Assembly (NCBI GenBank): GCA_963845205.1
Contig: CAWJRC010000004.1
Location: forward strand, 105,040 to 169,039
Length of the DNA stretch: 64,000 bases
Source of the DNA: an uncultured archaeon
GTDB taxonomy: Archaea; Nanobdellota; Nanobdellia; Pacearchaeales; GW2011-AR1
Direction of reading: 5' to 3'
Positions 1 through 1,653 of this stretch are shown piece after piece (positions within the stretch are counted from its first letter, which is position 1; every line of letters starts with the position of its first letter). Below the pieces are notes generated by a model. The model did not search any database. It was not told the origin of the DNA and worked only from the letters and a program-made list of their open reading frames with translations. The translations under genes were made by a program, and so were the position numbers.

Positions 1-1653
1 GAAGTAATAAAAAAAGCTGAAAAGAAAACAGAAGAGATTATTGAATCTTACAATAATGGAACTCTTGAAATAATTCCTGGAAAAACAAAAGAGGAATCAA
101 GAGAAATAAAAATATTGCAGGCATTAAATGAAGTAAGAACCAAGATAGGGGAGATAGTCAAGAAAGAATTCCCTGAAGGTAATCCTGTAAATCATATGAT
201 TAAATCAGGCGGAGGCGGAAATATTTTGAATATTACGCAGATGGCTTCCTGCGTCGGCCAACAGGCATTATGGGGAAGGAGAATTGATTTAGGTTATAAT
301 CAGAGAACAATGTCGTTCTTCAAGCAGGGAGATTTATCTCCTCATTCGAGAGGATTTATCAGAAGTTCGTTCATCAAAGGATTGAGGCCAGATGAATTTT
401 TCTTTGGAGCAGTTACAGGAAGAGACTCACTCATGGATACAGCATTGAGAACTCCGAAATCAGGATATTTGTACAGAAGACTTGCAAACGCTCTGCAGGA
501 CTTGAGAGTTGAATACGACGGAACAATAAGAGACAGCAATAACAATGTTATACAATACAAATACGGCGATGACGGACTTGATGTTTCAAAACTTCATCTT
601 AAAGAACAAATCTCTTCAGGGGAAGCTATTGGAATCATAACTGCACAATCTTTCGGGGAATCATCAACACAAATGACCCTTAATGTATTCCACTTCGCAG
701 GAGTCCAGGAAATGCAGGTTACTTCAGGACTTCCAAGATTGATAGAAATTTTCGATGCAAGAAAAAAACCTTCTTCACCAAAGATGGAAATTTATTTGAA
801 GAAAGAATATAACAACGAAAAAGATGCAAAATCATTTGCTGAAAAAATAAAGGAAGTTACATTAAGGGAAATTGCATCCGAGATAAATTTGAATTTTAGC
901 AGCAAGATGATTGAAATCAAAATCGACAAGAATGCACTAAAACAGACCCATAGTTCGATAAAGACAATTGTTGAAAGACTGAATGATCTTGGATTCGCTG
1001 TAAAGGAAAAAGCCGACGCAATAACATTAAATGCTGCTGAATTTAATTTCAAGGAAATTTATCAGATGAAAGAAAAACTTAAGAAAACAATAATTTCAGG
1101 AATTAAAGGAGTTGCTCAGCTTTTGATTGTCAAGAGAGAAAAAGACTTTGTCATTATTACTCTTGGAACCAACTTGAAAAAGATGATAGCATTAAAAGAA
1201 GTTGATGCTGACAGAACAATTTCAAATGACTTTTATGAAGTTGCGGATATTTTCGGAATAGAAGTTGCGAGACAGCTGCTAATAAATGAAATTTATGAAG
1301 TTTTAAATTCACAAGGAGCAGACATCAATGAAAGGCACCTTAAACTCGTCGCTGATGCAATGACAAACACAGGAGAAGTTAAGGGAGTTACAAGAATGGG
1401 GATCATTGCACAGAAATCTTCAATTTTGGCAAGAGCAACTTTCGAGACTCCAGGAAAACAATTCATCAATGCAACAATAAAGGGAAGCAAGGATAAATTA
1501 ATCAGCGTAATAGAAAACATAATGCTTAATCAGCCGGTTCCTGTCGGAACAGGACTTCCAGGACTTCTAGTCAAAGTCATCGGCCCTTTGGTAAAAGAAG
1601 AATCGGAAAAGAAAACAGCGAAGAAAGAAATTGTTGAAGAGACAAATAAATAA
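1..1653 (+). CDS. rpoA: DNA-directed RNA polymerase largest subunit Rpo1 (A'/A'' region), 5'-partial; bridge helix and trigger loop in one continuous frame
   Basis: Frame open from nt 1 (ORF track starts at internal TTG/Met 115). Funnel motif [12 protein letters not shown], bridge helix [42 protein letters not shown] and trigger loop [20 protein letters not shown] are all in frame. Confidence 0.85.
   Translation, partial: [550 protein letters not shown]

Follow-up and report, generated by a model that had tools for sequence, protein, structure and literature searches.

The DNA analyzed here, 64,000 nucleotides from an uncultured archaeon (GenBank assembly GCA_963845205.1, contig CAWJRC010000004.1, positions 105,040 to 169,039 of the forward strand; called the window below), begins partway through a genuine single gene that encodes the largest RNA polymerase (RNAP) subunit, Rpo1 or RpoA, and in which the regions equivalent to the A' (Rpo1N) and A'' (Rpo1C) subunits are joined. 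The C-terminal 550 codons and the stop codon of this gene occupy positions 1 to 1653 of the plus strand in frame 1, and the gene start lies upstream of the window. Comparison with related loci suggests that the joined gene probably arose by a secondary fusion, through deletion, from split ancestors in Pacearchaeota-type DPANN archaea. The A'/A'' fusion in Pacearchaeota has been known since 2017 and is not a new feature: Da Cunha et al. (2017, PLoS Genet) stated that "a secondary fusion [happened] in Pacearchaeaota" (PMC5484517), a paper that refers to its S29 Fig for a display of the split region. The gene described here shares with that fused Rpo1 its lineage and the presence of A' and A'' in one polypeptide, with nothing essential different. 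What is added is the breadth of the fused clade, a linker fixed at 14 amino acids (aa), the likely end points of the deletion, the timing of rpl30e loss, a single-gene rpoB, and the short-linker Rpo1 of Micrarchaeota and Altiarchaeota.

The A' and A'' regions form one continuous frame

Frame 1 is open from the first base of the window to the stop codon at positions 1651 to 1653 and contains no internal stop. With a GC content of 35.8%, frames 2 and 3 of positions 1 to 1653 contain 51 and 42 stops, respectively; chance can therefore be discounted as the reason for the open frame. The original prediction, that the fused A' and A'' share a single frame across the canonical split point, is thus borne out by a 550-codon frame that is free of any stop, restart, or terminal tails. 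The Pfam domains RNA_pol_Rpb1_4 and RNA_pol_Rpb1_5 cover residues 14 to 120 and 127 to 475, and motif scans located RGFIRSS at residues 117 to 123 (nucleotides [nt] 349 to 369) and the bridge helix motif DTALRT at residues 146 to 151 (nt 436 to 453), both, like all of the features below, on the plus strand. The bridge helix itself was placed at residues ~130 to 165 (positions 388 to 495) from the near gap-free pairing of residues 1 to 202 with yeast Rpb1 681 to 880; its position in Rpb1 we take to be ~810 to 845.

The last conserved block of the A'-equivalent region is YGDDG (residues 188 to 192, positions 562 to 576), which relatives and split A' tails conserve as well. Next comes a junction linker of 14 residues (residues 193 to 206, positions 577 to 618), in place of the C-terminal tail of A', the overlapping stop and start codons, and the N-terminal head of A''. 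The start of the trigger loop, which begins GEAIG, was found by motif scan at residues 207 to 217 (nt 619 to 651). The trigger-loop region as a whole (residues ~207 to 252, positions 619 to 756) pairs with A'' starting at residue 53 to 58 and with Rpb1 starting at ~1053/1060, and the trigger loop of bacterial beta' could also be aligned to it in phmmer searches of the Protein Data Bank (PDB). From DTALRT to the start of the trigger loop there are 61 residues, compared with 133 to 134 in the unsplit proteins of Bathyarchaeota and Korarchaeota. Bridge helix, trigger loop, jaw, and C-terminal clamp-core segments are all present and conserved. The closeness of bridge helix and trigger loop that had been proposed at the outset is therefore real, with the spacing of ~18 residues given there corrected to 14 between the conserved blocks YGDDG and GEAIG.

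The assignment of these blocks was based on PDB phmmer searches against solved archaeal and eukaryotic structures and on NCBIfam equivalog models. Residues 1 to 197 aligned to Thermococcus kodakarensis A' 685 to 881 of 906 and residues 199 to 524 to its A'' 53 to 382 of 391. Sulfolobus A' was matched up to residue 193 of the window protein, as far as position 855 of 880, and Sulfolobus A'' from residues 198 to 200, beginning at positions 57 to 60 of 392 to 395. Yeast Rpb1 681 to 880 paired with residues 1 to 202, and the alignment was picked up again at Rpb1 1053 from residue 199. The NCBIfam rpoA1 model (TIGR02390) covered residues 1 to 198 with model positions 658 to 855 of 867, the N-terminal two thirds of Rpo1 lying beyond the window edge; a full-length clade member (P0121) matched model positions 1 to 861 with 1078 bits, above the cut-off of 1042.55. 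On the same polypeptide, residues 195 to 519 matched positions 32 to 361 of 367 of the rpoA2 model (TIGR02389; E=2e-110). With the N-terminal head missing, the scores for this model fell below the curated cut-off of 420.65 in both the window (369.2 bits) and P0121 (382.4 bits), but judged by alignment the homology of the C-terminal part to A'' is unambiguous. The agreement of the structure-based alignments to Rpo1N/Rpo1C and Rpb1 with the NCBIfam models indicates that the conserved blocks had been identified correctly, and the concern that they might be misassigned was not borne out.

No separate A' polypeptide ending soon after the bridge helix is present, as there is no stop and the frame runs into the trigger loop, and no A'' start of its own with an N-terminal head of ~50 aa precedes the trigger loop in the window, where YGDDG and GEAIG are 14 aa apart. 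Split relatives carry 52 to 58 aa before GEAIG, and only 7 residues before GEAIG in the window can match that head. The canonical split Rpo1N/Rpo1C pairs (T. kodakarensis, 4QIW; S. shibatae, 2WAQ; and the Woesearchaeota locus CP066683.1) have all of the conserved blocks and the operon context in common with the window. Relative to the split proteins of Thermococcus and Sulfolobus, however, the window gene is without the A' tail of ~25 aa, the A'' head of ~52 to 57 aa, the stop, and the restart.

The fusion and its 14-residue linker are conserved across a clade

Relatives were sought in one genome for each species, and 80 loci were obtained with a product that matched all 550 residues at 61 to 88% identity. 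Of these, 73 from different assemblies were analyzed by alignment, giving 74 sequences with the window; motifs were scored on a MAFFT alignment, as regular-expression scans had missed many loci. Rpo1 was a single stop-free open reading frame (ORF) of 1109 to 1180 aa (stop to stop) in 64 of the 73 loci, and these full-length ORFs also hold the N-terminal RPEW and the catalytic NADFDGD motifs. In eight of the others, a contig end truncates the gene. The archaeon of the window would accordingly make its largest RNAP subunit as one polypeptide of about 1165 aa in place of A' and A''. The comparison with close relatives that had been proposed as a check thus found the same continuous frame in more than 60 independent genomes.

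The linker measured 14 aa in 69 of the 74 sequences (window included) and 15 to 17 aa in four, with one (L075) unscored, and its substitutions among relatives were conservative. Even the most divergent members of the clade, at 61 to 66% identity, keep the 14-aa linker, and this constancy suggests that the change happened once, at the base of the clade. The records of the relatives are labeled Pacearchaeota, Nanoarchaeota, Nanoarchaeia, or "Woesearchaeota," and by sequence grouping the lineage of the window gene is that of Pacearchaeota-type DPANN. Two archaeal Rpo1 contigs carry the labels "Parcubacteria group bacterium" and "Proteobacteria bacterium" (locus L030, JBAZBJ010000025.1, and protein P0016), which is probably the result of misbinning.

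A split that had been relocated rather than lost was suspected for a time, since the best 120 database homologs were no longer than 959 aa and one relative (L001, GCA_016181885.1) has an Rpo1 that is broken at the lid loop. This was ruled out by the 64 loci with the whole of Rpo1 in one ORF, the short database entries being cut by contig ends. In L001 the gene is divided between ORFs at 5013 to 5594 (193 aa) and 5573 to 8431 (952 aa), which overlap by 22 nt in different frames, and ~20 residues that are conserved in relatives (LLVPPVTIRPSIILESGERSE) are missing. The break was seen in no other locus, and this lone copy is a pseudogene or the product of misassembly.

The fused gene appears to derive from split ancestors

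In a search of cluster representatives, identity dropped sharply beyond the window's own clade. The next-best matches were of two kinds: separate A'' proteins of 383 to 398 aa, which were 47 to 50% identical over the A''-equivalent part (query residues ~195 to 529), and unsplit proteins of 1158 to 1340 aa, which were about 37 to 43% identical. The closest split A'' reached 49 to 50% over the A''-equivalent part, compared with 40 to 43% over all matched stretches for the unsplit proteins of Bathyarchaeota, Korarchaeota, and Micrarchaeota, so that these two values cover different spans. The genomes with the separate A'' proteins are labeled Woesearchaeota, Nanoarchaeota, or Nanoarchaeia. Two of these split sister loci were examined, L083 (Woesearchaeota record CP066683.1, 736,802 bp) and L084, and both have the gene order rpoH-rpoB'-rpoB''-rpoA'-rpoA''-rpl30e-nusA-rps12-rps7. 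Their A' proteins are 858 and 854 aa long and their A'' proteins 390 aa, with a stop-start overlap between the two genes of 8 or 4 nt. The sister loci are also split for rpoB (B' of about 500 aa and B'' of about 600 aa; positions 126 to 3430 in L083 and 146 to 3438 in L084). In the fused clade, by comparison, rpoB was a single ORF in all 62 fully covered loci (among L003 to L082), and although rpoB falls outside the window, this means that both large RNAP subunits are single genes in the window's clade.

The sister loci allow the end points of the change to be approximated. In L083, 26 aa follow YGDDG in A', with a tail that ends in YGDDGIDVSRSHGGTINVKKIIKEVKGGIHG before the stop codon, and 52 aa precede GEAIG in A'', with a head that ends in ENAKIDPGEAIG. 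The start of the split A' tail (YGDDGIDVSRSH) matches 12 residues of the window sequence, so the linker retains the first residues of the A' tail. The first 7 linker residues correspond to the start of that tail, and the last few to those immediately preceding the trigger loop. Relative to L083, about 64 residues and the stop/start overlap are missing, comprising ~19 aa of the A' tail and ~45 of the 52 aa of the A'' head. We hypothesize that the ancestor of the clade had split rpoA genes and that one in-frame deletion of roughly 190 bp took the end of A', the overlapping stop and start, and all but a small part of the A'' head, which would have welded rpoA' and rpoA'' into one gene. A single in-frame deletion of ~190 bp would give exactly the junction that is observed.

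Phylogenetic grouping was assessed with a neighbor-joining tree built on 316 columns of the A''-equivalent region with 100 bootstraps. The fused clade was monophyletic in 100 of the 100 bootstraps and was joined by the split Woesearchaeota/Nanoarchaeia A'' proteins in 98, but it grouped with the fused Micrarchaeota in none. Taken with the identity values, these groupings favor a fusion that was secondary and occurred at the base of the clade. Several points weigh against this origin. Neighbor joining is a crude method and DPANN sequences evolve fast, so that long-branch effects are possible. The taxon labels mix "Woesearchaeota," "Pacearchaeota," and "Nanoarchaeota," and the clade names used here rest on sequence grouping rather than on curated taxonomy. 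Micrarchaeota and Altiarchaeota, which are DPANN related, also have a single-gene Rpo1 with short linkers. The single-deletion mechanism is deduced from the end points only, as the DNA is too diverged to show a scar.

The most serious alternative is that the lineage never had split genes and inherited a single rpoA, as in Thaum-, Kor-, and Bathyarchaeota or in Micrarchaeota and Altiarchaeota, in which the segment between bridge helix and trigger loop was merely shortened. Single-gene Rpo1 is indeed widespread, and linkers as short as 9 to 11 aa in Micrarchaeota and 18 to 24 aa in Altiarchaeota show that compact junctions occur elsewhere. However, the A''-equivalent part of the window gene is closest to the split A'' of Woesearchaeota/Nanoarchaeia, with which it consistently grouped and never with Micrarchaeota; the sister loci are split at both rpoA and rpoB; and the published analysis calls the fusion secondary (PMC5484517). 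We consider an ancestral unsplit gene unlikely on these grounds. In view of the single-gene Rpo1 of Micrarchaeota and Altiarchaeota, an unsplit DPANN ancestor followed by later re-splitting is a remote possibility. Replacement of rpoA by horizontal transfer from another lineage that already had a compact fused gene would account for the junction, as such genes are known elsewhere, but the absence of any tree affinity to those lineages (0 of 100 bootstraps with Micrarchaeota), the native rpoH-rpoB-rpoA-nusA-rps12-rps7 context, and the graded sequence identity within the fused clade make it very improbable. That the fusion is an artifact, produced by the loss of a genuine stop or frameshift from between A' and A'' or by the false joining of two contigs, has next to no probability. 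In its favor are the status of the window as one unverified sequence and the broken Rpo1 of L001, though at another place; against it stand a continuous frame and a 14-aa linker with conservative substitutions in about 70 independent assemblies at 61 to 88% protein identity, and the loss of ~64 to 77 residues of tail and head, which is more than a stop codon. A secondary fusion by deletion is thus the origin that we favor.

A probable peripheral module is missing and the catalytic elements are conserved

The place of the absent A' tail and A'' head corresponds to residues 881 to 1052 of eukaryotic Rpb1, in the region of the foot domain. The Rpb1 foot is a surface region that is poorly conserved outside RNA polymerase II, in which it helps to anchor Rpb6 and Rpb4/7; the yeast foot mutant rpo21-4 affects W954, inside this interval (PMC5389574). 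Eukaryotes have enlarged this surface module, whereas the window clade has dropped the segment entirely. As the lost segment would be a peripheral and poorly conserved surface module, its removal is expected to leave the catalytic elements intact.

A structure was predicted with AlphaFold2 for a relative (P0001, 946 aa, 86% identical to the window protein). The mean predicted local distance difference test (pLDDT) score of the model was 78, with values of 82 to 90 over residues 581 to 610, which hold the junction, and helices were found at the position equivalent to the bridge helix. The model matched Rpb1/RPC1 with TM-scores of 0.72 to 0.74, normalized to the query. A prediction for the 550-aa window fragment alone had a mean pLDDT of 59.8, with values below 50 at the bridge helix and the junction; it was unusable, and P0001 was used instead.

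The enzyme is most likely an ordinary archaeal RNAP whose largest-subunit halves are covalently joined and from which a small peripheral module has been discarded. The stoichiometry and assembly of A' and A'' would then be enforced covalently. Loss of the junction module fits the genome streamlining that is typical of DPANN archaea.

Other single-gene forms of Rpo1 and the use of the split as a marker

The view that Rpo1 is normally split in Archaea, from which the original prediction had started, is correct for Euryarchaeota, Crenarchaeota, and most DPANN but does not hold for Thaum-, Aig-, Kor-, and Bathyarchaeota or for some Asgard. An unsplit RpoA has been described for Thaum-, Aig-, and Korarchaeota (PMC3082918; PMC4084955) and is also found in some Asgard. 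Single-gene RpoA database entries came from Bathyarchaeota, Nitrososphaerota, Helarchaeia and Baldrarchaeia, Altiarchaeota, and Micrarchaeota. Spang et al. (2018) concluded that RpoA split and fusion events are more common than previously assumed (PMC5875740). The unsplit RpoA of these TACK and Asgard groups is a single gene, as in the window, but it is about 1265 to 1340 aa long and has 87 to 93 aa between YGEDG and GEAVG, compared with 14 aa between the equivalent blocks of the window. The TACK proteins are also not the closest kin of the window gene, with 41 to 43% identity compared with 49 to 50% for the split Nanoarchaeia A'', and they did not group with it in the tree.

More similar in form are the Rpo1 proteins of Micrarchaeota and Altiarchaeota, which appear in databases under the name "subunit A'" and are likewise encoded by a single gene, with junctions of 9 to 26 aa. 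Micrarchaeota junctions were mostly 9 to 11 aa, with some of 22 to 23 aa (P0127, P0294 to P0369), and those of Altiarchaeota were 18 to 24 aa (P0380, P0383). These proteins are only about 40% identical to the window protein and never grouped with its clade, and their short junctions are probably independent compaction events. No paper on a short-linker single-gene Rpo1 in Micrarchaeota or Altiarchaeota was found in the literature searched.

Two further kinds of Rpo1 were encountered among the proteins retrieved. Seven proteins of 1608 to 1679 aa (P0338, P0342, P0353, P0355, P0358, P0133, and P0385) contain the intein-related Pfam domains PF14528 and PF14890 and are intein-containing RNAP large subunits; those with a source name are labeled Micrarchaeota. 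P0209 (1125 aa) and P0215 (1246 aa) are single-chain largest subunits with a eukaryote- or virus-like bridge helix (KTAETGYMQRRL) and a junction of about 9 to 12 aa, and in the rough tree they stand alone on a long branch that is separate from the archaeal groups.

The single-gene rpoA and rpoB of the window's clade and the separate short-linker, foot-less Rpo1 of Micrarchaeota and Altiarchaeota are the basis for a broader and more tentative proposal, to which we give somewhat less than even weight: that genome-reduced archaea have repeatedly and independently re-fused split RNAP genes by deletion, with Micrarchaeota and Altiarchaeota as separate cases. In that case, the A'/A'' split would serve badly as a "rare genomic change" with which to root the archaeal tree, and the junctions would form a natural set of minimal designs for engineering a single-chain archaeal RNAP. 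Arguments about the archaeal root and the position of Asgard have drawn on the split as a rare character (PMC5484517; reply, PMC5875740), and each further well-delimited reversal weakens it in that role. The window's own clade indicates that a cellular RNA polymerase can do without the whole segment between bridge helix and trigger loop, which is the counterpart of the eukaryotic foot region, and that a linker of 14 residues is enough to join the halves, which could guide the construction of a single-chain recombinant archaeal RNAP. Current understanding is otherwise unchanged, as the fusion is published for the lineage and databases annotate the gene as a matter of routine.

Operon context and loss of rpl30e

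Downstream of rpoA the window has the order rpoA-nusA-rps12-rps7-(two inserted ORFs)-EF2-EF1a. The gene directly 3' of rpoA (positions 1713 to 2129, plus strand, 138 aa) is an archaeal nusA-like gene, matched by the NCBIfam model TIGR01952 (nusA_arch) at E=1.4e-13, which is below the curated cut-off, and weakly by Pfam KH_2; its position is that of nusA in both split sister loci. It is followed on the same strand by rps12 (positions 2171 to 2593), identified as uS12 above the curated NCBIfam cut-offs, and by rps7 (positions 2595 to 3209), a full-length uS7 match with E values of about 1e-59 to 1e-66 whose NCBIfam scores fell just short of the cut-offs (220.9 versus 225 and 199.5 versus 200). 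Relatives have rpoH and rpoB on the upstream side of rpoA; in the one locus whose gene table was read, two small ORFs stand between rpoB and rpoA.

The gap between rpoA and nusA is 59 nt (positions 1654 to 1712) and contains no rpl30e, as had been noticed at the start. A search of the whole window for an L30e-like ORF was likewise negative: none of ten mid-size ORFs matched the L7Ae/L30e-family model PF01248, tblastn gave no rpl30e match, and neither did a hidden Markov model (HMM) built from three sequences, which is shallow enough that a very divergent copy could escape it. The operon had been described as rearranged, and this applies to the missing rpl30e but not to the remaining downstream order, which is the same as in the split sister loci. 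Among the 64 relatives with nusA downstream, the gap was shorter than 200 nt in 36. Nine divergent members of the fused clade at 61 to 66% identity (L064, L068, L072, L074 to L077, L080, and L081) have an L30e-like ORF immediately downstream of their fused rpoA, with E values of 1e-8 to 1e-34 against a small HMM. Since these divergent members keep the gene, the fusion came first and rpl30e was lost later, in the window's subclade. The loss of rpl30e is thus separate from the fusion and not tied to it.

Scans of the window for tRNAs and Rfam families found four tRNAs and nothing that bears on the fusion. Of the two ORFs inserted between rps7 and EF-2, the first (positions 3264 to 3662) is an Xre/MbcA/ParS-type antitoxin-like gene (Pfam PF09722, E=1.2e-7), for which the NCBIfam RES/Xre antitoxin model scored below its cut-off and which is not adjoined by a RES toxin gene. 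The second (positions 3720 to 4148) encodes 142 aa with a lipoprotein-like signal (…LFSGCSQ) and had no family match. Toxin-antitoxin-like genes also break into the same operon in the relatives L001 and L002.

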